Assembly: GCA_047611865.1 (NCBI GenBank)
Contig: JBLFWS010000024.1
Coordinates: 1-30,091, forward strand
DNA from: Chlamydiales bacterium
GTDB lineage: Bacteria; Chlamydiota; Chlamydiia; Chlamydiales; JBDQID01
Reading direction: 5' to 3'
Length of the DNA stretch: 30,091 nt
A program made the translations under genes and the position numbers. Positions 4,321 through 29,910 of the stretch are shown piece by piece (the stretch's first letter is position 1; every line of letters starts with the position of its first letter). Below the pieces are notes generated by a model. That model was not told the DNA's origin, ran no database searches, and saw nothing but the letters and a program-made list of their open reading frames with translations.

Positions 4321-4433
4321 TGAAATCCTTACTATCATTAAATTAAATTTACGGTTAATTTTCATCTAATACTCTTATAGCACATTAATGTTATTAATGG
4401 TTGGTTAAGATTGTTCATGTTGTAGTTGTTATA

Positions 4434-4643
4434 GGCGTTGTTGCATAACTTAATACGTTTACAATTATTTATTTAACCACAGAGAGCACCGAGAACACAG
4501 AGAGATAGAAAAATGCATAAAGTTTCTCAGAATATGCTATCAACTGATCTGTGATTTTTTATTTTCTCTGTGCCCTCTGTGATCTCGGTGGTAAAATTTT
4601 AATTATAAGCCTCTTGTAGACGCATGTTTTATGCGACAACGCC
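4434..4643. repeat. Nested inverted-repeat element
   Basis: Outer imperfect IR 4434-4464 / 4614-4643 (GGCGTTGTTGCATAA.. / ..TTATGCGACAACGCC). Inner IR 4474-4505 / 4565-4594 (ACCACAGAGAGCACCGAGAACACAGAGA / TCTCTGTGCCCTCTGTGATCTCGGTGGT). Confidence 0.85.
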
Positions 4644-6356: not shown

Positions 6357-7388
6357 ATGTACGTTTCAAGTAGACGAAAGAAGTTGTCGCCACTTATTTT
6401 TATAATTCCTCTATTGATTCTAATATCTATGGTGACCTTCTATTTTTTTAGTGATCCTACCGTGACAAAAAAAGAATACGCTTTGGCCATTCATGGCGGT
6501 GCGGGAACGGTTCCTCTAAATTTGTCTGAAAAAAACAAGCAGGAATATCTCTCTACACTGGACCAAGCCCTTCAAATTGGAGAGGAAATACTACAAAATG
6601 GTGGGACAGCAGTCGACGCAGTAGAAAAAGTAGTGGTATTTTTGGAAGACGATCCAAAGTTTAATGCAGGTAAGGGGGCTTCTTTTAACAGTCAAGGGAT
6701 TCATGAATTAGATGCCTCTATAATGGATGGTTCTAATTTAAAAAACGGAGCTGTGATAGCTACTAGGACGGTTAAGAATCCAATCGTTTTAAGCAGACTG
6801 ATAATGGAAAGATCCAACCATACTCTTTTTTATTCAGAAGGGGCAGAGTTGTTGGCAGACGATTGGGGAGTTGATAGAGTTTCTGAAGAGTATTTTTATT
6901 CCGAACTAAGGTATGACCAATGGAAAGATGCCAAAAAAACCGAGACTGTACAATCTGATCATTCGGTAAACGCCGATGGGAAGTTTGGTACCGTGGGTTG
7001 TGTAGCCCTTGACAAGCATGGAAATCTTGCTGCGGCAACTTCTACAGGTGGTCTGACGAATAAAAAATCAGGTAGGGTAGGGGATTCTCCTATAATCGGA
7101 GCAGGCACCTATGCCGATAATAAAACATGTGCTGTTTCTTGTACGGGAAATGGGGAAGAGTTTATTCGGCATGTGGCAGCTTTTCAAGTTTCTTCTATCA
7201 TGGAATATACGGGCGTCTCTCTTGAAGTTGCTGTTCAAAGAGTTATAGGAGAAAAGATGAAACCAGGTACGGGTGGAGCTATCGCTATTAGCCGTGATGG
7301 AGAAGTGGTGATGTCATTTAATACAAATGGCATGTTTCGAGGGGCTACTGACTCTACGGGTTGGAGAGAGCTAGGGATCTGGAGATAA
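6357..7388 (+). CDS. iaaA: Isoaspartyl peptidase / plant-type L-asparaginase (Ntn hydrolase) with N-terminal membrane anchor
   Basis: AIHGGAG, FNAGKG, ELDASIMDG, nucleophile GTVG, ATSTGG, GRVGDSP and CTGNGE motifs. Confidence 0.93.
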   Translation: MYVSSRRKKLSPLIFIIPLLILISMVTFYFFSDPTVTKKEYALAIHGGAGTVPLNLSEKNKQEYLSTLDQALQIGEEILQNGGTAVDAVEKVVVFLEDDPKFNAGKGASFNSQGIHELDASIMDGSNLKNGAVIATRTVKNPIVLSRLIMERSNHTLFYSEGAELLADDWGVDRVSEEYFYSELRYDQWKDAKKTETVQSDHSVNADGKFGTVGCVALDKHGNLAAATSTGGLTNKKSGRVGDSPIIGAGTYADNKTCAVSCTGNGEEFIRHVAAFQVSSIMEYTGVSLEVAVQRVIGEKMKPGTGGAIAISRDGEVVMSFNTNGMFRGATDSTGWRELGIWR

Positions 7389-7490
7389 GGTTTTTTGTTA
7401 AAAAGCTTGAAAAGAAAACGCTATTAAGGCAAGAATTGTGTTTTTAGTGAAATAAAACACTATTTAATATCAAAAGAAAGCTACAAGCCA

Positions 7491-7580
7491 ATGAAAGTCA
7501 ACCAAGCTCTATCCACAATTATTCTAGTGATTATTACTATTGTGGTGGATAGCCATAACAGGGTGCGGACTTACGCGTAG
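7491..7580 (+). CDS. ilv leader peptide 1, MKVNQALSTIILVIITIVVDSHNRVRTYA
   Basis: Translated by hand. Ile/Val/Leu/Thr cluster with Leu encoded as CTA. GGTGCGG in its 3' end is complementary to the terminator left arm. Confidence 0.9.
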   Translation: MKVNQALSTIILVIITIVVDSHNRVRTYA

Positions 7581-7606
7581 GCTTAAATAGCTAAAGCAAG
7601 TTAAGT

Positions 7607-7643
7607 AAAAGCCGCACCTTAAGCAAGGTGCGGCTTTTTTTTT
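7607..7643 (+). terminator. Attenuator terminator 1 of the ilv operon
   Basis: AAAAGCCGCACCTT-aagc-AAGGTGCGGC followed by T9. Antiterminator partner GGTGCGG at 7562-7568. Confidence 0.93.
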
Positions 7644-7684
7644 GGCCAAAAGCAAAGATGGAAAAATACAAAAGAAAAGAAAAA

Positions 7685-7789
7685 ATGAAAAGTACTCTTA
7701 AGCAAATCATTCCAAGCCTAGTCATTGTGAACATTATTATTGTGATTCTAGTCGTCCTAGTGAAGGAGACGAGGTGCGGGCTGATGTGA
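7685..7789 (+). CDS. ilv leader peptide 2, MKSTLKQIIPSLVIVNIIIVILVVLVKETRCGLM
   Basis: Translated by hand. 14 of 15 consecutive residues are I/V/L, with three CTA Leu codons. Alternative in-frame ATG at 7658. Confidence 0.9.
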   Translation: MKSTLKQIIPSLVIVNIIIVILVVLVKETRCGLM

Positions 7790-7817
7790 TAGAGATACAC
7801 AGCAGTTAAGGTTTGAC

Positions 7818-7856
7818 AAGAACCGCACCTCGAAAGAAGTGCGGTTCTTTTTTTTT
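7818..7856 (+). terminator. Attenuator terminator 2 of the ilv operon
   Basis: AAGAACCGCAC..GTGCGGTTC followed by T9. Antiterminator CGAGGTGCGG (7770-7779) pairs perfectly with CCGCACCTCG (7823-7832). Confidence 0.93.
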
Positions 7857-7888
7857 ATCAAAAGCAATAGCGAAAAAGGAATCGGGGA

Positions 7889-9574
7889 ATGAATCAAACA
7901 GGATCTACAGCGTTGATCCAGGCACTGCTAAAGGAGGGAGTTGATCTCATCTTTGGATATCAGGGTGGAGCCATTATGCCAAGCTATGATGCACTATATG
8001 ATGTGCAGGAAGAAATAAAGCATGTGATGGTACGCCATGAACAGGGTGCGGTCCATGCTGCAGAGGGCTATGCTCGGGCGACAGGGAAAACAGGCGTTTG
8101 CTTTGCCACATCTGGACCAGGAGCCACGAACCTTGTTACAGGTATCGCTGATGCGATGCTCGATTCTGTTCCCATTGTATGTATAACAGGTCAGGTAAAT
8201 AGCGCATTTCTCGGAACCGATGCTTTCCAGGAAGTCGATATAATGAGTATTACTGCTCCCATCACCAAGTGGAGCTATCAGGTAAGTGATGCGGAGGACA
8301 TCCCCGATTGTATCGCAAAGGCTTTTCACCTTGCTCGAAGTGGGCGGCCAGGACCCGTAGTTGTGGATATTACAAAAGATGCACAAATGGGAGAGTTTAA
8401 AAAGGGTCGCGAAATATACAAGGGCAATACGAGTAAGGCATTTAAGGAAGAGCCTACCCAACACCAAGTTATACGGGCAGCAAACTTGATCAACGGGGCT
8501 AAAAAGCCTCTTATGTTTGTAGGGCAAGGGGTGCTTCTTTCTGGAGCAGAAAAGGCGGCCCGTGAATTGGCAGAAAAAGCAGACATCCCTGTGGCATCTA
8601 CTTTGCTTGGTCTTTCTTCTTTTCCTGGAGATCACCGTTTACATATGGGGATGCTGGGGATGCATGGGAATTATGCTCCCAATTTACTGACGAATGAAGC
8701 CGATGTTATTATAGCAGTAGGAATGCGCTTTGATGACAGAGTGACAGGGGCACTTTCCAGATACGCGAAACAAGCAGAGATTATCCATATCGATATTGAT
8801 GCTTCTGAATTGAATAAAAATGTTCCAGTTTCTGTAGCCATACATGCTGATGCAAGAAAAACTTTGGAAAGCCTTTTCTCGCACGTTCATGAGAATAAGC
8901 ATTCGGAATGGGTAGAGAAGTTCTACAGCTGCAGAGGGCTTGAGAAAGAGACTGTTTTTAAGAAGGATTTCAAGGGATTAGGTGAGGACATAAAAATGGC
9001 AGAGGCGGTGGACCTCTTATCACGGATGGCCCCAAAAAAGACTGTAGTTGTAACTGATGTGGGTCAGCACCAGATGGTTACCGCTCGCTATTTTGATTTT
9101 CAACAAACAAATGCTCATATTACTTCGGGTGGATTGGGAACAATGGGCTTTGCCCTACCTGCTGCGATTGGCGCAAAGATGGGACGTAGAGATAATGAGG
9201 TGCTTGCAGTGATAGGCGACGGAGGCTTCCAAATGTGTATTCAGGAGCTGGGAGTTATTATGCAGGAGAAGCTACCCGTTAAAATCGTTATTCTTAACAA
9301 CAGTTTTTTGGGAATGGTAAGGCAATGGCAGGAGCTCTTTCACGGGGGGCGCTATTCGTGTGTTGAGATGGTAAACCCAGAATTCACAAAGATAGCTGAA
9401 GGCTATGGGATCAAGTCCAGAAAAGTCCAGAAAAGAGAAGATTTAGCAGAAGCCATCAAGGAGATGTTCTCTTCTGATGAGGCGTATTTATTAGAAATCG
9501 CTGTGGAAAAGGAACAGAAAGTGTATCCGATGGTGCCACCAGGTTCCACCGCAGCAGAAGTCGTTTTAGCATAA
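7889..9574 (+). CDS. ilvB: Acetolactate synthase (AHAS) large subunit
   Basis: RHEQGA, TSGPGATN, GMLGMHG, RFDDRVTG, DVGQHQM, and the TPP motif GDGGFQM...NN. Confidence 0.97.
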   Translation: MNQTGSTALIQALLKEGVDLIFGYQGGAIMPSYDALYDVQEEIKHVMVRHEQGAVHAAEGYARATGKTGVCFATSGPGATNLVTGIADAMLDSVPIVCITGQVNSAFLGTDAFQEVDIMSITAPITKWSYQVSDAEDIPDCIAKAFHLARSGRPGPVVVDITKDAQMGEFKKGREIYKGNTSKAFKEEPTQHQVIRAANLINGAKKPLMFVGQGVLLSGAEKAARELAEKADIPVASTLLGLSSFPGDHRLHMGMLGMHGNYAPNLLTNEADVIIAVGMRFDDRVTGALSRYAKQAEIIHIDIDASELNKNVPVSVAIHADARKTLESLFSHVHENKHSEWVEKFYSCRGLEKETVFKKDFKGLGEDIKMAEAVDLLSRMAPKKTVVVTDVGQHQMVTARYFDFQQTNAHITSGGLGTMGFALPAAIGAKMGRRDNEVLAVIGDGGFQMCIQELGVIMQEKLPVKIVILNNSFLGMVRQWQELFHGGRYSCVEMVNPEFTKIAEGYGIKSRKVQKREDLAEAIKEMFSSDEAYLLEIAVEKEQKVYPMVPPGSTAAEVVLA

Positions 9575-9590: not shown

Positions 9591-9965
9591 ATGGATAACT
9601 TTGACTATATCATAACAGCAAAATGTATGGACCTACCGACATCTTTGCAGCGATTAATGTCGTTAGTAAGGAGAAAGGGCTTAAAGGTGAAGCAATTGAA
9701 TGTAACGGATGCTGAAGTAGACGGGCAGATGCTTCTAAAACTGATGCTGGAGGGGAAGCATAATAAAGTCGAGAACCTCGTAAGGCATTTAAGGAAGATG
9801 TTCACCATGCAAGATGTTCAGGTTAGTTTTAAAATATTGGAAGAAACAAAAGAAAGCACAATAGAAAACAGACGCTTTGGACTTAGTAATCGTTTTATAG
9901 ATTTTGGGGGATATTCTCCGATAGATTCTCTAGAAGAGCAAATGGCAACAGCACAAATAATGTAA
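9591..9965 (+). CDS. AHAS small subunit, single ACT domain (IlvM-like)
   Basis: Lies directly after ilvB. SLQRLMSLVRRKG...VENLVRHLRK follows the ACT pattern. The canonical NxPGVL motif is absent. Confidence 0.75.
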   Translation: MDNFDYIITAKCMDLPTSLQRLMSLVRRKGLKVKQLNVTDAEVDGQMLLKLMLEGKHNKVENLVRHLRKMFTMQDVQVSFKILEETKESTIENRRFGLSNRFIDFGGYSPIDSLEEQMATAQIM

Positions 9966-9980
9966 AAAAAGGAAAAGATT

Positions 9981-11075
9981 ATGTCAAAAATGAAATTTGG
10001 AAATGAAGAAGAAGAAGTTGTGAATCGTCAAGAGTTTCCTCTGGAAAAATCTTTAGAAACTTTGAAAGGAGAAACCATAGCAGTACTTGGATACGGGGTA
10101 CAGGGACCTGCTCAAGCATTGAATCTAAGAGACAACGGCTTCAATGTCATCATAGGGCAAAGAAAGCATTCACGTTCTTGGGAAAAGGCATTAAATGATG
10201 GCTGGAAAGAAGGGGTGAACTTGTTCCCTCTGGAAAAGGCTTGTGAGTTAGGGAGCTTTATATGTTACCTGCTATCAGATGCAGGGCAGATGCAGTTATG
10301 GGATACGATAAAACCTTATCTTACCCCAGGAAAAACGCTTTGCTTCTCCCATGGATTTTCAGTGACTTATGCTGAACAAACAAAAGTTGTTCCTCCTGAG
10401 GGTTTGGATGTGCTTCTCGTAGCTCCAAAAGGTTCTGGTAGAAGCGTAAGAAAGTTATTTCTAGAAGGTAAGGGGATTAATGCAAGCTATGCTGTTTTTC
10501 AGGATGACAGTGGCAATTCACATGAAAAAGCGAAGGCTTTTGGTATCGGTATAGGATCAGGTTATCTTTTTAAAACCGATTTTAAAAGCGAAGTTTTTAG
10601 TGACCTGATGGGTGAGCGTGGAGTCCTGATGGGTGCTTTGGGTGGTATGATCGAAGCTCAGTATGAAGTACTAAGAGAAAATGGGCATTCACCCAGTGAA
10701 GCTTTTAACGAAACGGTAGAAGAGTTGACTCAAAGCCTCGTTCCTCTTGTTGGAGAAAATGGGATGGACTGGATGTACGCCAACTGCTCAACAACGGCCC
10801 AACGTGGAGCACTAGACTGGAGCAAACGCTTTAAAGCAGAGCTTAAGCCATTGTTTGAAGAACTATATAATGATGTGGCTACAGGAAAAGAGACGGCTAT
10901 AGTCCTCGATGCTAACTGTCGTTCTGATTACAAGGAACAGTTGGATAAGGAATTGGCGGAGCTCGGAGAAAAGGAAGTCTGGAGAGTGGGGAAAAAAGTT
11001 CGTGAGCTACGCCCTCAAAATGGTAATCAAGAATCTATAGAAGAAAGGGTGACTTGTTTTGTACCAGCTAGTTGA
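9981..11075 (+). CDS. ilvC: Ketol-acid reductoisomerase
   Basis: GYGVQG, SHGF, VAPKGSG, SDLMGERGVLMG and CSTTAQRGA motifs. Confidence 0.97.
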   Translation: MSKMKFGNEEEEVVNRQEFPLEKSLETLKGETIAVLGYGVQGPAQALNLRDNGFNVIIGQRKHSRSWEKALNDGWKEGVNLFPLEKACELGSFICYLLSDAGQMQLWDTIKPYLTPGKTLCFSHGFSVTYAEQTKVVPPEGLDVLLVAPKGSGRSVRKLFLEGKGINASYAVFQDDSGNSHEKAKAFGIGIGSGYLFKTDFKSEVFSDLMGERGVLMGALGGMIEAQYEVLRENGHSPSEAFNETVEELTQSLVPLVGENGMDWMYANCSTTAQRGALDWSKRFKAELKPLFEELYNDVATGKETAIVLDANCRSDYKEQLDKELAELGEKEVWRVGKKVRELRPQNGNQESIEERVTCFVPAS

Positions 11076-12891
11076 TTTCAAAACGAAAGAAAATGTTGAA
11101 GCAAAGGACCTGGTCTTTACAGGCGACGAAAACCCCTGGGAAGTAGTGGTGGATTTGGAAAAGGTGAAAAAGAAAATAAACCTCGATCACTTTAAGCAGG
11201 TTCCTCCAAGCCTTTCGAAGTACCTACCTTTCCTGCCTATCAAAGACTACGGGAATTTTGTCTCTTTGAGAGAGAGTGCGACACCTTTGATACAGTCGAA
11301 GTCTCTGGGTAAGAAATTGGGTGTGGATCTATATTTTAAACTCGAGGGAAAGAACCCCACAGGCTCTTTTAAAGATAGAGGGTCTGCAGTAGACATCTCT
11401 GTAGCAAAAGAATTCAATGCAAAGGGAATTGTTCTTGCTTCAACAGGAAATATGGCAGCCTCTTGCTCTTGTTATGCAGCGGCTGCAAAGATACCTTGTT
11501 TTGTTTTTATTCCCGAGGGTGTGTCTATGGGCAAATTGGCCCAAGTGATATCTTTTGGTGGGCGCATAGTGCAGGTTAAAGGTACCTACAATGATGCGGC
11601 AAGATTAGCTGAATCAGTTGCAAAAAGCATGGGCTTCTATCTGGCCGGGGATTATGCCTTCAGAGTAGAGGGACAGAAAACAGCAGCCTTTGAGTTGATG
11701 GATCAGATGTTTTTCCAAGATGTTGACAAAGTAGTTTTGCCTATAGGTTGTGGTACAAATATGGCGGCTTATGTCAAAGGTTTTAGAGAATATCGCTACC
11801 TGGGACTTATAGAAACTATTCCACAGCTGATAGGTGTTCAGGCAGAAGGAGCCTCCAGCGTAATCAACAGCTTCAACAAAAAAAGTTGGAGCATAGAGAG
11901 CACTAAGGGGGTAAACACCTCGGCTTCTGCAATAGCGGTGGCTGATCCCTTGGATGGGACAAAAGCCTTAGAAGCAATATACAATACAGGAGGAGAAGCT
12001 TATTCCGTGACGGATCAGGAAATTCTCCACTCGCAGTATTTGTTGGCTAAAGAGGAAGGCTTGTTTGTGGAGAGTTCTTCCGCCTCAGCAGTAGCTGCCT
12101 TGTTTAAGATGTCTCTGGATAAAAGCGCAAAGGGACAGAGAGTTGTTTGCATTCTTACTGGGGATGGCTTGAAAGATCCAGATGTTATCCTAAAGGCTGC
12201 CTTAAAGCCCCCTACTATAAGGCCTGAAGAAAAGGAATTTAAGAGTCTTTACGATGGTGGGTTTTTTAATAGCAAAAATATCGTCTTTCTTGATAAGGAT
12301 GTTCCACTCTTTTCTAAAGCTCCGACAGCGGATGAAGTTAGGGAATCCCTTACGCAGTTTTTTAATGCAGATTTTTGTAACGAATATGTGGAGAAGATCA
12401 AAGAACTCTCTTCTGCATGTTTAGCAAAAGGAAAGACGGTAACTCATTCAGACTTCCAGGATATTGTACAGGATGTCTTAGAGAGTTCTGATAGTGAAGT
12501 GGAAAAAGATTTTACTGTTTTAGACTTCGAAGTAAGCACAGGAAAAGATAAGGTCGCCAAAGCGCAAGTTGAGGTAGTTTTTAGAGGGTTAAAGCATGTG
12601 GCTCATGCAAAAGGTGTAGGACCCGTTGATGCCGTTATCAACGCCTTATCCAAAGCCTGTAAAGGGGAAATTGATTTTAAATTGACGAATTACAAAGTAG
12701 ATATCCGTAATAAAGGCGTGGATGCTCTGGTATATGTGGAGCTGAAGTTGGAAAAGGATTGTCATTCTTCTTTAGGGCAAGCAACTTCTCCAGATATTAT
12801 ACAAGCTTCAATAGAAGCTTTTGAGGGAGCATATAACGGATTTATCAACTCGCAAAAAAACAAGGTACTTCATGAGTCAGGTTCTCAATAA
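11059..12891 (+). CDS. thrC: Threonine-synthase-like PLP enzyme fused to a C-terminal LeuA/CimA-type allosteric domain
   Basis: [10 protein letters not shown] (PLP Lys), [21 protein letters not shown]. The C-terminus has [34 protein letters not shown] start overlapping ilvC. Confidence 0.85.
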
Positions 12892-14551
12892 ATACAGTTC
12901 GACTATCACGCAAAGAAAATCCCAAGGTGCCTCACAGGCCATGCTTTATGGAACAGGGCTAAGTCGAAAGGACATGGATAAAGCGCAGGTGGGTATTGCA
13001 AGTATGTGGTATGACGGGAATACCTGTAACATGCACCTTTTAGAGCTTGCAAGCCTGATTCGAGAGAGCGTTAAAGAAGAGGGACTCGTAGGCGTTCGTT
13101 TTAATACCATTGGAGTTAGCGATGGTATTTCCATGGGAACGAGCGGGATGAGATATTCTTTGCAGTCCCGGGAAATAATCGCCGACTCTATCGAAACGGT
13201 AATGGAAGCACACTTTTACGATGCCTGTATTGCTGTTCCTGGGTGTGATAAGAATATGCCCGGCAGTATTATTGCTTTAGCTCGATTGAATCGACCTTCT
13301 TTTATGATATTTGGTGGGACGATAAAACCTGGATGCCTAAAGAAAAAAAATCTGGATGTGGTTTCCGCTTTTCAAAGTTATGGCGAATACCTTGCGGGTA
13401 ATATCGATGATAAAGCCCGAGAAGAAATTGTGAAGGCTTCTTGTCCAGGTCCCGGTGCCTGTGGGGGGATGTATACCGCCAATACCATGGCCTGTGCAAT
13501 CGAGGCGATGGGTATGTCCATGCCTTACAGTTCTTCAACTCCAGCCATCGATTCTTTGAAAGAGGAGGAATGTTCAAAAGCGGGTGCTGTTATCCGGAAT
13601 CTTTTAGAGAAGGATCTTAAGCCCAGTGATATTATGACGAGGGAAGCCTTTGAAAATGCTATGGTTCTCGTAACTGTTCTTGGAGGTTCTACAAATGCGG
13701 TTCTTCACCTTCTGTCAATGGCAAGAGCCATTGGAGTAGAATTATCTCTGGAAGACTTTCAAAATGTTAGTGATCGTATTCCTCTTTTGGCGGATATCAA
13801 ACCCAGCGGGAAATATTTGATGAATGACCTGCATGAAGTAGGAGGAACTCCTGCGGTAATGCGTATGTTGCTGAAGGAAGGTCTACTAAACGGACACTGT
13901 ATGACCGTTACTGGAAAGACTATTGCTGAAAACCTTAAGGGTTTGCCGGACCTTACGGAAGGGCAAAGAGTTATTATGCCTTTTTCTGAGGCAATTAAAA
14001 AGACAGGTCATCTGCAGATTCTAAAGGGAAATCTTGCTCCAGAGGGTTCTGTAGCCAAGATTACAGGAAAAGAAGGCTTGACGTTTTCTGGTCCAGCAAA
14101 AGTCTTTGATGATGAAGAGTCCATGATTAAGGCTTTGGAGAAAGGCCAGTTAGAAAAAGGAGATGCTATCGTTATACGATATGTGGGTCCTAAAGGTGGT
14201 CCTGGTATGCCTGAGATGCTGAAGCCCTCTTCTGCTCTAATGGGCTCCGGCCTTGGAAAGCATGTGGCATTACTTACTGATGGACGATTTTCCGGAGGAT
14301 CTCATGGCTTTCTCATCGGACACATATCTCCCGAAGCTCAAGATGGTGGTCCCCTTGCTTTGCTACAGGATGGAGACAGAATTGTTATCGATGCTGAAAA
14401 AAATACTCTCGATGTCAATCTTTCTGAAGGAGAATTTGAAGAAAGAAGGAGAAATTGGAAAGCACCGGCCTACAAAGTTAGTAGGGGAGCATTGTTTAAG
14501 TATATAAAAAATGTAAAATCTGCCAGCGTGGGCTGCGTAACAGATGAATAA
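12872..14551 (+). CDS. ilvD: Dihydroxy-acid dehydratase
   Basis: [42 protein letters not shown] and TDGRFSGG motifs. Start moved to ATG 12872. Confidence 0.97.
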
Positions 14552-14561
14552 AAGGAATACT

Positions 14562-14975
14562 ATGTCTTTATCTTTTGAAAGAATAGCTACAGAAAAAGCT
14601 CCAAAAGCCTTGGGACCATATTCACAGGCTACAAGTGTTGACCTAACGAATTCAAGATTATTATTTGTCTCCGGTCAGTTACCTATTATTCCAGAAACAG
14701 GAAAAATGATCTCTGGAGATATTATAGCCATGACGCATCAGATCCTCGATAACTTGGACACGATCCTTAAGGAGGGCGGAAGTAGCATGAGATCGGTCTT
14801 GCGCGTTGACGTGTTTATGAAAGATCTTAATGACTTCGAAGCTTTCAATGAAGTTTATGGCATGCGTTTTACTGGGCCCAAATACCCAGCCAGACAGACT
14901 GTTCAGGTAGAAAAGCTGCCACTAGACTCACCTATTGAAATATCATGCATAGCCTTCCAGGAGACAGGGAAATGA
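14562..14975 (+). CDS. ridA: RidA (YjgF/YER057c/UK114) enamine/imine deaminase
   Basis: APKALGPYSQA, VSGQLP, FNEVY, PARQTVQV (catalytic Arg) and IEISCIA. AAGGA SD before ATG 14562. Confidence 0.93.
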   Translation: MSLSFERIATEKAPKALGPYSQATSVDLTNSRLLFVSGQLPIIPETGKMISGDIIAMTHQILDNLDTILKEGGSSMRSVLRVDVFMKDLNDFEAFNEVYGMRFTGPKYPARQTVQVEKLPLDSPIEISCIAFQETGK

Positions 14976-15925
14976 CAAACAAAGAAATGAACTATTGTTA
15001 CTTTAGAAAGCAAATTGTTCCCTTGGAGAAAGCAACAGTAAATGTTTCTTGCCAGACTATGCAATATGGAAGTAGTTGTTTTAGTGGAATACGAGGTTAC
15101 TACCGAGAGGGAAAGGTACGTTTGTTCCGCTTGAGAGATCATTATGAGAGGCTAATGGAGGGTTCAAAAATTTTAGGTTTTGACTTTTTTTTAGAGTACG
15201 AAGCCTTCGAAAAAATAATAGAAGACCTTGTTACGACTAATACTCCGGAAGAGGATTTTTATATTCGGCCGTTTATTTTTACGGAAGATGACAGCCTTGG
15301 ACCATGCTTTGATACTCCTCTCTTTGACATGTCAGTTTATATGAAGCCTTTGAGTAACTATTACGATCCTCACAAGGGGTTGAGGATGATGATTTCCTCT
15401 TGGAGGAAAATGTCGGATTCTTCGATATCTGTAAAAGCAAAGGCTGGCGGCTCTTATTTGAATTCTTCATTGGCTACTACTGAAGTAAAACGTTGTGGCT
15501 ATGATGAAGCTCTTTTAATGGATCAGCATGGTTCTATTGCTGAAGGAAGTGCAGCAAACATTCTTATTGAATATCAAGGAAGTATTATCACTCCTCCTCT
15601 AGGGGCAGCCACCCTGAACGGAATCACGATGAGAACTGTTGTAGAACTTTTACAAAGTGAGGGGATACTCGTACGCTTCGAGCCAATCGATCGTTCTATG
15701 GTTTATACCTGTAACGAGCTCATCCTTACTGGAACAGCAGCACAGGTGAGCTTTGCCTCTTCCGTTGATGGGAGAGAGATGGGTAAAAGCGCTCCCGGGA
15801 AGCCTGGCCCTTTATGCCAAATGTTGAGAGGTTTGTTTAATGAGGTCTTAGATATGAAGAGCCCATTTTCGGATAAATGGATAAGAGAGTTTTCTCTTAG
15901 TGCTGAAGAAGCTTCAGTCGTTTGA
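14972..15925 (+). CDS. ilvE: Branched-chain amino acid aminotransferase (class IV)
   Basis: QYGSSCFSGIRGY, LFRLRDHYERL, KAGGSYLNS, EGSAAN, LNGITMRTV and TGTAAQV. ATGA overlap with ridA. Confidence 0.92.
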   Translation: MTNKEMNYCYFRKQIVPLEKATVNVSCQTMQYGSSCFSGIRGYYREGKVRLFRLRDHYERLMEGSKILGFDFFLEYEAFEKIIEDLVTTNTPEEDFYIRPFIFTEDDSLGPCFDTPLFDMSVYMKPLSNYYDPHKGLRMMISSWRKMSDSSISVKAKAGGSYLNSSLATTEVKRCGYDEALLMDQHGSIAEGSAANILIEYQGSIITPPLGAATLNGITMRTVVELLQSEGILVRFEPIDRSMVYTCNELILTGTAAQVSFASSVDGREMGKSAPGKPGPLCQMLRGLFNEVLDMKSPFSDKWIREFSLSAEEASVV

Positions 15926-21526: not shown

Positions 21527-21592
21527 AGCTTTTCCTTAGTATTTAAGGAGAGAGAATTTTAAAAATGGTGGTGGTATAATGTATGACCCACA

Positions 21593-21763
21593 ACCAGTAG
21601 CTCTCCACGTTACTTACGTGACAGTCCCAGGGCTTCACCCCTAGAAGGACCAACAAGAAAAGTTCCAGAGCTTTTCCTACTTCGGCGTTAATCCCCTTCT
21701 TCGGTTTTCATTGAGACCAGGATCTCTCCAACCGAATATCTGGTTAACGCTCCTCTTACTGAT
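21593..21763 (-). promoter_or_regulatory. Lysine riboswitch (L-box)
   Basis: The minus strand reads CAGTAAGAGGAGC...AAGGGG..ACGCCGAAG...GACTGTC..GGAGAGCTACTG, matching the L-box consensus. Located upstream of lysC-lysA. Confidence 0.95.
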
Positions 21764-21902
21764 TTCTTAAGAAAGAAAATACGCTTTATTGATAAACGTA
21801 TTCAGAATATTCAGTCAATGGCTATTTTTCCTTAGACATTTATTGGGAGCTGTCTATTCTGACCAAAGCGCCTTTCTATTTTATAAAAAAGGAGTAATAA
21901 CC

Positions 21903-29457: not shown

Positions 29458-29910
29458 TTAATCCCATACGTAACGTTCATTAAATTCGACGCCATTTTTA
29501 TTCAGAAGTCGTCTGTACTCTTCTTGAAACGATACTTCATGATGATGTTTACGTTGATTTGCGATGTAGAGAATTACAGCATCTTTATGGGACGAGCTGA
29601 CGGAGAAAATGCCATAGCCATTTTGCCAAGAGAACTGAAGAAATTGCGACCCTTTTGTTTTTATCCATTTAGAAGAGCCTTTCTTAATCTCTTCTACTAA
29701 TTTGCTTGCAGTAAGGGTTCGAGGTAAGTTTATTAGCATGTGGACATGGTCTTCAATACCGCCTGCTTTTAAAACAAAAGCACCATTGGCTCGACAGATA
29801 CTTACCATATATGAATGTAATTCTTTTTCAATGTTGCACTCTATGAATGGTTCTCTGTTTTTGGTGCTGAATACAAGGTGAACAAGTAGGCTTGCTAGAG
29901 ATTGAGACAT
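29458..29910 (-). mobile_element. tnpA: HUH Y1 transposase, IS200-like / REP-associated tyrosine transposase (RAYT)
   Basis: VHLVFSTKNR, HUH motif DHVHML, WQNGYGIFSVS and catalytic Tyr in YIANQRKHH. No tnpB within the window; flanked by palindromic repeats. Confidence 0.93.

Follow-up and report, generated by a model that had tools for sequence, protein, structure and literature searches.

The branched-chain amino acid operons of enteric bacteria are preceded by leaders (ilvL, ivbL and leuL) in which a short open reading frame rich in cognate codons carries an antiterminator within its last codons, followed by an intrinsic terminator and the biosynthetic operon. Comparative surveys of attenuation have reportedly been made by Vitreschak (2004) and Lopatovskaya (2010). 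PMC1183508 lists ilvL (ilvGMEDA), ivbL (ilvBN) and leuL as enterobacterial leader-peptide attenuators, and gives CUA as the sensitive leucine control codon in enteric leu attenuators. According to PMC3641672, the leader of Salmonella mgtCBR contains two tandem uORF attenuators, mgtM and mgtP, which sense ATP and proline and act additively. The same paper calls this tandem attenuation singular, contrasts it with a leader having two intrinsic terminators, and cites the tandem riboswitches of metE in Bacillus clausii. Tandem T-boxes are described in PMC12452182. Annotated attenuators are almost absent from the Chlamydiota (PMC2965389). The putative trpL of Chlamydia trachomatis is described in PMC7755916 as atypical and unvalidated and as a poor attenuator by prediction, in a species that lacks TrpL-mediated attenuation; it is the only leader-peptide attenuator that we have found discussed for this phylum. 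No validated one was found for Chlamydiota in the literature searched. The open literature, to which our search was confined (subscription surveys lie beyond its scope), contains no description of tandem branched-chain leader attenuators or of the chlamydial family presented here.

We have analyzed a stretch of 30,091 nucleotides from a Chlamydiales bacterium (contig JBLFWS010000024.1), which we call the window. Its region 7389-7888 contains two short open reading frames and two hairpin-plus-U-tract terminators, followed by an operon with the gene order ilvB-ilvN-ilvC-thrC-like-ilvD-ridA-ilvE (Table 1). Like ilvL, ivbL and leuL, this locus has a leader with cognate codons, CUA for leucine, an antiterminator in the last codons, an intrinsic terminator and a branched-chain operon. 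On the other hand, it has two complete units in series and no predicted protector hairpin, and the chlamydial family to which it belongs is mostly found ahead of a transporter gene and does not match any Rfam leader. The resemblance to mgtCBR lies in the presence of two short reading frames in one leader, each of which would couple translation to transcription; however, the chlamydial units are homologous, each has its own intrinsic terminator, and both would respond to the same set of amino acids. Two complete sensor-terminator units in series, in which read-through should multiply, are also found in tandem riboswitches and T-boxes, but the chlamydial sensor would be a translating ribosome instead of an aptamer or an RNA that binds tRNA: Rfam gives no match to an aptamer or T-box domain between 7300 and 7950. 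In contrast to the atypical trpL, the anatomy of the chlamydial family is canonical.

Table 1. Position of the features of the tandem leader and of the ilv operon in the window.
Feature	Position	Strand	Remarks
Candidate sigma-70-type promoter, weak	7407..7436	+	TTGAAA-18-AAGAAT, 9/12 consensus matches
Leader ORF 1, 29 aa	7491..7580	+	control codons 7-19 at 7509-7547
Putative antiterminator 1	7560..7620	+	5' core GGTGCGG 7562-7568 pairs with CCGCACC 7612-7618
Intrinsic terminator 1	7607..7643	+	14-pair hairpin 7607-7638 and 9 T
Spacer (A-rich) with the leader 2 start region	7644..7684	+	without promoter-like site
Leader ORF 2, 34 aa	7685..7789	+	control codons 12-26 at 7718-7762
Putative antiterminator 2	7770..7832	+	5' core CGAGGTGCGG 7770-7779 pairs with 7823-7832
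Intrinsic terminator 2	7818..7856	+	hairpin 7818-7849 and 9 T; 32 nt ahead of ilvB
ilvB, acetolactate synthase large subunit	7889..9574	+	TIGR00118 above cut-off
ilvN-like ACT small subunit	9591..9965	+	ACT_5; NCBIfam matches weak
ilvC	9981..11075	+	TIGR00465 above cut-off
Threonine-synthase-like PALP enzyme fused to a LeuA allosteric domain	11059..12891	+	domain matches
ilvD	12821..14551	+	TIGR00110 above cut-off
ridA-type deaminase	14544..14975	+	TIGR00004 above cut-off
ilvE-like branched-chain aminotransferase	14945..15925	+	NF005146, TIGR01122 slightly below cut-off

The units extend from 7491 to 7643 and from 7685 to 7856. The first-pass annotation had reported two consecutive leader/antiterminator/terminator units, a TIILVIITIVV string in leader 1 and, in the last codons of each leader, a GGTGCGG motif complementary to the left arm of the terminator. 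We confirm these observations: the string occupies codons 9-19 of the leader, and the motif pairs with CCGCACC in both units. The control codons of leader 1 comprise five Ile (all AUU), three Val, two Leu (both CUA) and two Thr. Codons 12-26 of leader 2 read LVIVNIIIVILVVLV, which amounts to five Ile, six Val, three Leu (all CUA) and one Asn, with two further Ile at codons 8-9. An alternative in-frame ATG for leader 2 is found upstream at 7658; the start at 7685 agrees with the paralogue described below. The 10-nt complement of unit 2 includes GGTGCGG at 7773-7779, its CCGCACC partner being at 7823-7829. The motif is read in different frames, as part of RVRTYA in unit 1 and of RCGLM in unit 2. 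When the units are aligned with each other, the mean column identity is 72%, and on this basis we consider them homologous. A strict search of the 3.59-Mb genome gave 70 terminator-like hairpins. These two are the only ones to combine an Ile/Leu/Val-rich leader with a complement of at least 6 nt, although this detector overlooked a second pair, on contig C186, which was found afterwards. The sequence from 6900 to 8400 is found, identical and within one contig, in two of four DNA runs, from which the assembly may have been made.

Both terminators are predicted to be stable: -22.6 kcal/mol (z -5.1) for the first and -19.9 kcal/mol (z -6.4) for the second, with none of 200 shuffled sequences folding as well in either case. 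The corresponding values for the antiterminators are -21.8 kcal/mol (z -2.7) and -27.2 kcal/mol (z -5.3). Terminator and antiterminator are mutually exclusive, as the CCGCACC arm is common to both. To represent a ribosome at each A-site codon in turn, the 9 or 12 nt behind that codon were masked, and the transcript was folded as far as the loop of the terminator. In unit 1, the antiterminator has a probability of 1.0 as long as the A site has not passed Val19, and is gone by His22; in unit 2 the probability is 0.94 up to Leu25/Val26, and the structure is gone by Glu28. The switch is thus predicted to fall right behind the last control codon in both units. With either mask, a stall at a control codon frees the antiterminator in the predicted folds and passage blocks it, which corresponds to the geometry of a classical attenuator. 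When the full transcript is considered at equilibrium, the terminator prevails wherever the ribosome is placed (P 1.0, unit 1), so that switching would have to be kinetic, as expected for ribosome-mediated attenuation. The antiterminator continues to be predicted when no ribosome is present (P 1.0 and 0.93 in units 1 and 2, respectively), and no protector (1:2) hairpin is predicted in either unit of the window. Of the features of a classical attenuator, the locus presents a cognate-codon leader, a terminator, an exclusive antiterminator and a predicted stall switch; the protector hairpin is the one that is not predicted.

These features make it quite probable that the two units in series are ribosome-mediated attenuators, both reading Ile, Val and Leu, so that the same test has to be passed twice. 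Translation of the leaders would keep pace with transcription. A ribosome stalled at any of the control codons would leave GGUGCGG free to pair with the left arm of the terminator; two or three codons further on, it would cover GGUGCGG and the terminator would form. Read-through would be approximately the product of two probabilities, so the basal leak would be squared and the response would become steeper. Shortage of one amino acid would open both ilv units, a single signal tested twice. Such doubling may be needed if lone units are leaky, as the lack of a Shine-Dalgarno-like motif before the two leaders of the window and of a protector hairpin suggests: when both ribosome and protector are absent, the antiterminator would form first. 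A toy race model with assumed rates, which illustrates the prediction and is not evidence for it, gives a basal read-through of 0.02 with one unit and 0.0004 with two. In this model the ilv pair opens fully for Ile or Val, partially for Leu and hardly at all for Thr (at most 0.02). With the pair in place, these genes are likely to respond more steeply to a shortage of the three amino acids, and with less leakage.

A pattern scan of 401 genomes with the motif only, leader content and downstream gene being outside the pattern, gave 21 matches in 16 genomes, compared with 2 for a control pattern. Sixteen of the matches are found ahead of brnQ (identified by Pfam at one locus, and at the others by a common N-terminus), four ahead of ilvB, and one is unrelated. 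A loose pattern scan was rejected as evidence for the family and taken as a lead only: it stands at chance level, with 161 of 401 genomes and a similar figure for its control. A covariance model built from 28 units has matches in 23 of 73, 13 of 23 and 8 of 129 genomes of three families, training and weak hits included. The curated set contains 63 units in 46 loci, from seven families of the order and one metagenome contig; a pattern scan of metagenomes gave at least one family member (L179) among the 119 stretches listed. Eighteen loci are tandem and 28 single, and the tandem ones are found in four families and on the metagenome contig. The duplication which the first-pass annotation proposed to look for in related genomes is therefore present in them. 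One of the tandem loci, G479, was reclassified from single by hand, two units being detected by the model; G040, the weak hits G229, G468 and G306, and four hits (L368-L371) are outside the count. The downstream gene is brnQ at 34 loci (10 tandem), an ilv operon at six (three tandem), leuCDB at one, which is tandem, and unknown at five (four tandem). No units were found ahead of ilvB in G370 and G321.

The antiterminator folds in 60 of the 63 units, compared with 100 of 630 shuffled controls, and in 51 of these 60 the core begins 14 or 17 nt ahead of the stop codon. The core is near-invariant, with no both-sided change at any of its seven pairs among 28 aligned units. Its pairing is partly circular, because the pattern and the model used to collect the family both include this core. 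The terminator hairpin shows both-sided changes at 7 of 17 consensus pairs. Neither leader of the window is preceded by a Shine-Dalgarno-like motif, which is found in 11 of 62 family leaders as compared with 648 of 1626 long reading frames. No Rfam family reaches its gathering score between 7300 and 7950 (the best is Thr_leader, 23 bits versus 55); by this measure the attenuator family belongs to no curated RNA family. The leader codons fit the genes downstream: Ile/Val/Leu before ilv, Leu/Ile before leuCDB and Ile/Val before brnQ. We conclude that the chlamydial tandem pair is real and conserved, and infer a regulatory function from its sequence.

Some related observations may be mentioned here. 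At locus L279 (G242) the two units may overlap, with leader 2 beginning within the right arm of terminator 1. A protein of 272 amino acids without NCBIfam match is often found behind brnQ (L351:1673-2491, also L337, L341, L347); at four loci its gene lies directly behind the attenuator(s), and it is likely to be under branched-chain control, given this position. One of the two brnQ genes of our genome, on contig C22, is preceded by a short leader of another type, in which Ile, Thr and Val are frequent (L299:2705-2790, minus strand). It ends in a small GC hairpin, followed by a weak hairpin that lacks a clear U tract, and does not match the model. No leader was found at the other brnQ gene (L298).

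Leaders with Ile/Val codons are also found before ilvD in Bacteroidota. They are tandem at 7 of 80 loci in a loose scan (L038, L044, L053, L054, L058, L061 and L062, all ilvD-ilvB leaders, from Saprospiraceae, Marinilabiliales and Bacteroidia), and a stricter 500-nt scan gave 3 tandem and 28 single leaders among 65 loci. The design is the same, but the core motifs are different and their scores with the model do not exceed 38 bits, as against 51-143 for most chlamydial members, so in terms of sequence they are a separate or far-diverged family. The view that classical attenuators occur singly, taken by the first-pass annotation, needs to be qualified in the light of these leaders and of mgtCBR, as described in PMC3641672.

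A further case is the second tandem pair of the same genome, found with the covariance model (L359, G000:C186:2414-2777, minus strand), which precedes leuC and then leuD- and leuB-like reading frames. Its unit 1 aligns with ilv unit 1 and its unit 2 with ilv unit 2, and the shifted frame of unit 1 is kept; this correspondence in the same order points to a copy of the whole cassette. The control stretches are IIRKIIQLLLP and CIILMQLIALI, with Leu and Ile but no Val, which matches the requirement of the leucine pathway; in the toy model this pair opens for Leu or Ile and stays closed for Val. In its first unit the core reads GGTGTGG/CCACACC/GGTGTGG: one change is compensated in antiterminator, left arm and right arm, the only both-sided core change that we have seen in the family. 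The leu copy of the cassette, with Leu/Ile control codons in the same genome, is new. We infer that leuCDB received a whole copy of the cassette, whose control codons then shifted from Ile/Val/Leu to Leu/Ile, the structure being kept. We rejected the possibility that the corresponding contig of the DNA runs comes from a related organism: it agrees in length and depth with the genome's own leu copy, and the depth of the leu locus tracks that of the window contig over three runs (49.7/63.7, 11.8/12.7 and 9.3/7.4-11.5). The flanks of leuC that we examined in 12 further genomes of the phylum gave no attenuator units; in several of these genomes another gene lies directly upstream. No leuA was found in the assembly, which has one HMGL-like hit of 313 aa; the C186 contig ends within leuB.

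Codon choice is also peculiar. In the four leaders of this genome, CUA makes up 12 of the 15 Leu codons that precede the antiterminator, compared with 12.3% genome-wide, and none of the 21 Ile codons is AUA, compared with 24.5%; these positions are homologous among the leaders. In the rest of the family, AUA accounts for 3 of 217 Ile control codons.

The tandem arrangement may be ancient. In a tree of units, position in the pair clusters, with 10 changes for first and 7 for second units versus 15 when shuffled (none of 500 as low). One group, with support 87/85, contains nine second units and five singles, and singles group with either first-type or second-type units, in a tree with 9 of 60 branches well supported. 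These results are compatible with an ancient pair that has lost one of its units more than once, although they do not prove it. Both units might be real attenuators and yet the second might add nothing of note, as a tolerated duplication that drifts in and out. The placement of the singles is in line with this, and so are the 28 single loci, which include three of the six ilv loci and indicate that one unit can suffice. In addition, tandem and single units have similar terminator and antiterminator energies (p 0.73 and 0.40). Nevertheless, both units are intact at 18 loci in four families, and both have been retuned after the ilv/leu duplication while keeping their structure, so we consider a neutral duplication unlikely. 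Protection against leak may also differ. The antiterminator is blocked without a ribosome in 25 of the 63 units; it forms in 25 of 35 tandem units and in 13 of 28 singles (p 0.027, for units which are kin and not independent), so a protector is rarer in tandem units, a hint that doubling offsets leak.

The first-pass annotation had proposed that the pair acts as an AND gate or as a response sharpener, and that unit 1 senses Thr, in keeping with the thrC-like gene in the operon. In a true AND gate, unit 1 would report Thr/Ile and unit 2 Val/Leu, and the operon would open only if both were short. The two Thr codons are in fact limited to unit 1, Val codons are twice as many in unit 2, and the operon contains the thrC-like gene. 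But the control stretch of each unit has five Ile codons together with Val and CUA-Leu codons, which argues against a gate with separate amino acid inputs, and the composition of first and second units is similar across the family: Ile 0.32/0.38, Val 0.15/0.14 and Thr 0.06/0.02 of the control codons, respectively, within family stretches which are rich in Ile (0.32-0.38) and have 0.08-0.15 Val. Thr thus represents 2-6% of control codons in the family, and as unit 2 has none, a pair in series would still terminate if Thr alone were short. The genome also has a separate thrA-thrB-thrC-like operon on contig C7, so the thrC-like gene of the window is not the only one in the cell; no attenuator was found upstream of the C7 operon. 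We therefore find Thr sensing unsupported and an AND gate highly improbable. The sharpener, on the other hand, is favored by the geometry, the codon choice, the conservation of the pair in four families and the retuned paralogue.

The ilv operon itself shows a patchy distribution. IlvB has six homologues with 57-65% identity in the 400 scored genomes of the phylum, and its best named relatives are almost all from Bacteroidota (52-59% identity), which suggests that the operon was gained. The PALP-LeuA-domain fusion occupies the usual place of ilvA, beside ridA. Its best 120 homologues are all fused, and belong to Francisellaceae, other Gammaproteobacteria and Bdellovibrionales. No IlvA was found in the genome. 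As a candidate, so far unrecognised role, the fusion may supply 2-oxobutyrate instead of IlvA, under feedback control. Whatever its role, it gives no reason for Thr sensing.

The units might also be independent: terminator 1 would end the transcript of the upstream asparaginase-like gene, and a promoter between the units would drive a single ordinary attenuator. The asparaginase-like gene is on the same strand and ends at 7388, no terminator was found before 7607, and the spacers are A/T-rich. However, no promoter-like site was found on the plus strand between 7580 and 7690, and in other genomes unit 1 accompanies unit 2 behind unrelated upstream genes. Inter-unit spacers range from -15 to 71 nt and do not exceed 22 nt in 6 of 17 cases; these short spacers (down to 8-22 nt, with one overlap) argue against an internal promoter and make this arrangement very unlikely. 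The promoter candidate of Table 1 is no better than chance, as five sigma-70-type sites are seen where 2.9 are expected. The TTGACA at 7813-7818 was discarded as a promoter element, as it has no -10 partner and is absent from the paralogue. Finally, it is extremely improbable that the reading frames code for small hydrophobic membrane peptides (type I toxin-like) followed by plain terminators, in spite of the 15-residue aliphatic run in leader 2, given that enrichment is limited to Ile, Val and Leu with biased codons, that Arg, Lys, Gln and Pro interrupt the run in the paralogous leu leaders, that the 3' motif is conserved as nucleotides across two reading frames, and that the genomic context is one of branched-chain amino acid genes.

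Two serial attenuators reading the same amino acids would then be an old chlamydial cassette, found mostly ahead of the importer gene brnQ and recruited to ilv operons, which in this genome would have been copied whole to leuCDB and retuned. A broader proposal seems to us evenly balanced between right and wrong: that Chlamydiota carry a portable, ancient two-unit cassette which squares the leak and sharpens the response to starvation with no protein regulator involved, which is transferred in one piece from brnQ to ilv or leu operons when these are newly acquired, and which is reprogrammed simply by rewriting the control codons of both units. If so, tandem leader-peptide attenuation would be a general design with more than one origin, Bacteroidota included. 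A mechanism which is taught as one unit per operon would gain a serial version with two terminators, and canonical leader-peptide attenuation would have a place in chlamydiae, where amino acid sensing is poorly understood. The ilv and leu copies of one genome, together with single and paired relatives, are natural constructs in which the gain from a second attenuator (leak, slope and range) could be measured. The same copies could address transcription-translation coupling in Chlamydiota.

The host appears to be an environmental chlamydia, in view of its seven TLC nucleotide translocases, the relatives of its BrnQ, which are named Parachlamydiaceae, and the lack of a RelA_SpoT match in the genome, while 11 of 14 controls have one. 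The genome is 95.5% complete; Chlam_OMP6 has no match in it, nor in the controls. A MITE-like repeat of about 200 bp is present in the window (4432-4640) and on the leu contig (G000:C186:2925-3125), 150 nt upstream of the leu cassette. It has close to 90 BLAST hits in the genome, with 82-96% identity among the matches listed. At 29458-29910 (minus strand) the window contains a reading frame which we take to resemble an IS200/IS605 or REP-associated tyrosine transposase, from an HUH-like motif seen by eye. A lysine riboswitch (RF00168, 88 bits) is found at 21590-21765 (minus strand), ahead of lysC-lysA, which are followed on the same strand by genes for a DAHP synthase and a prephenate dehydratase.
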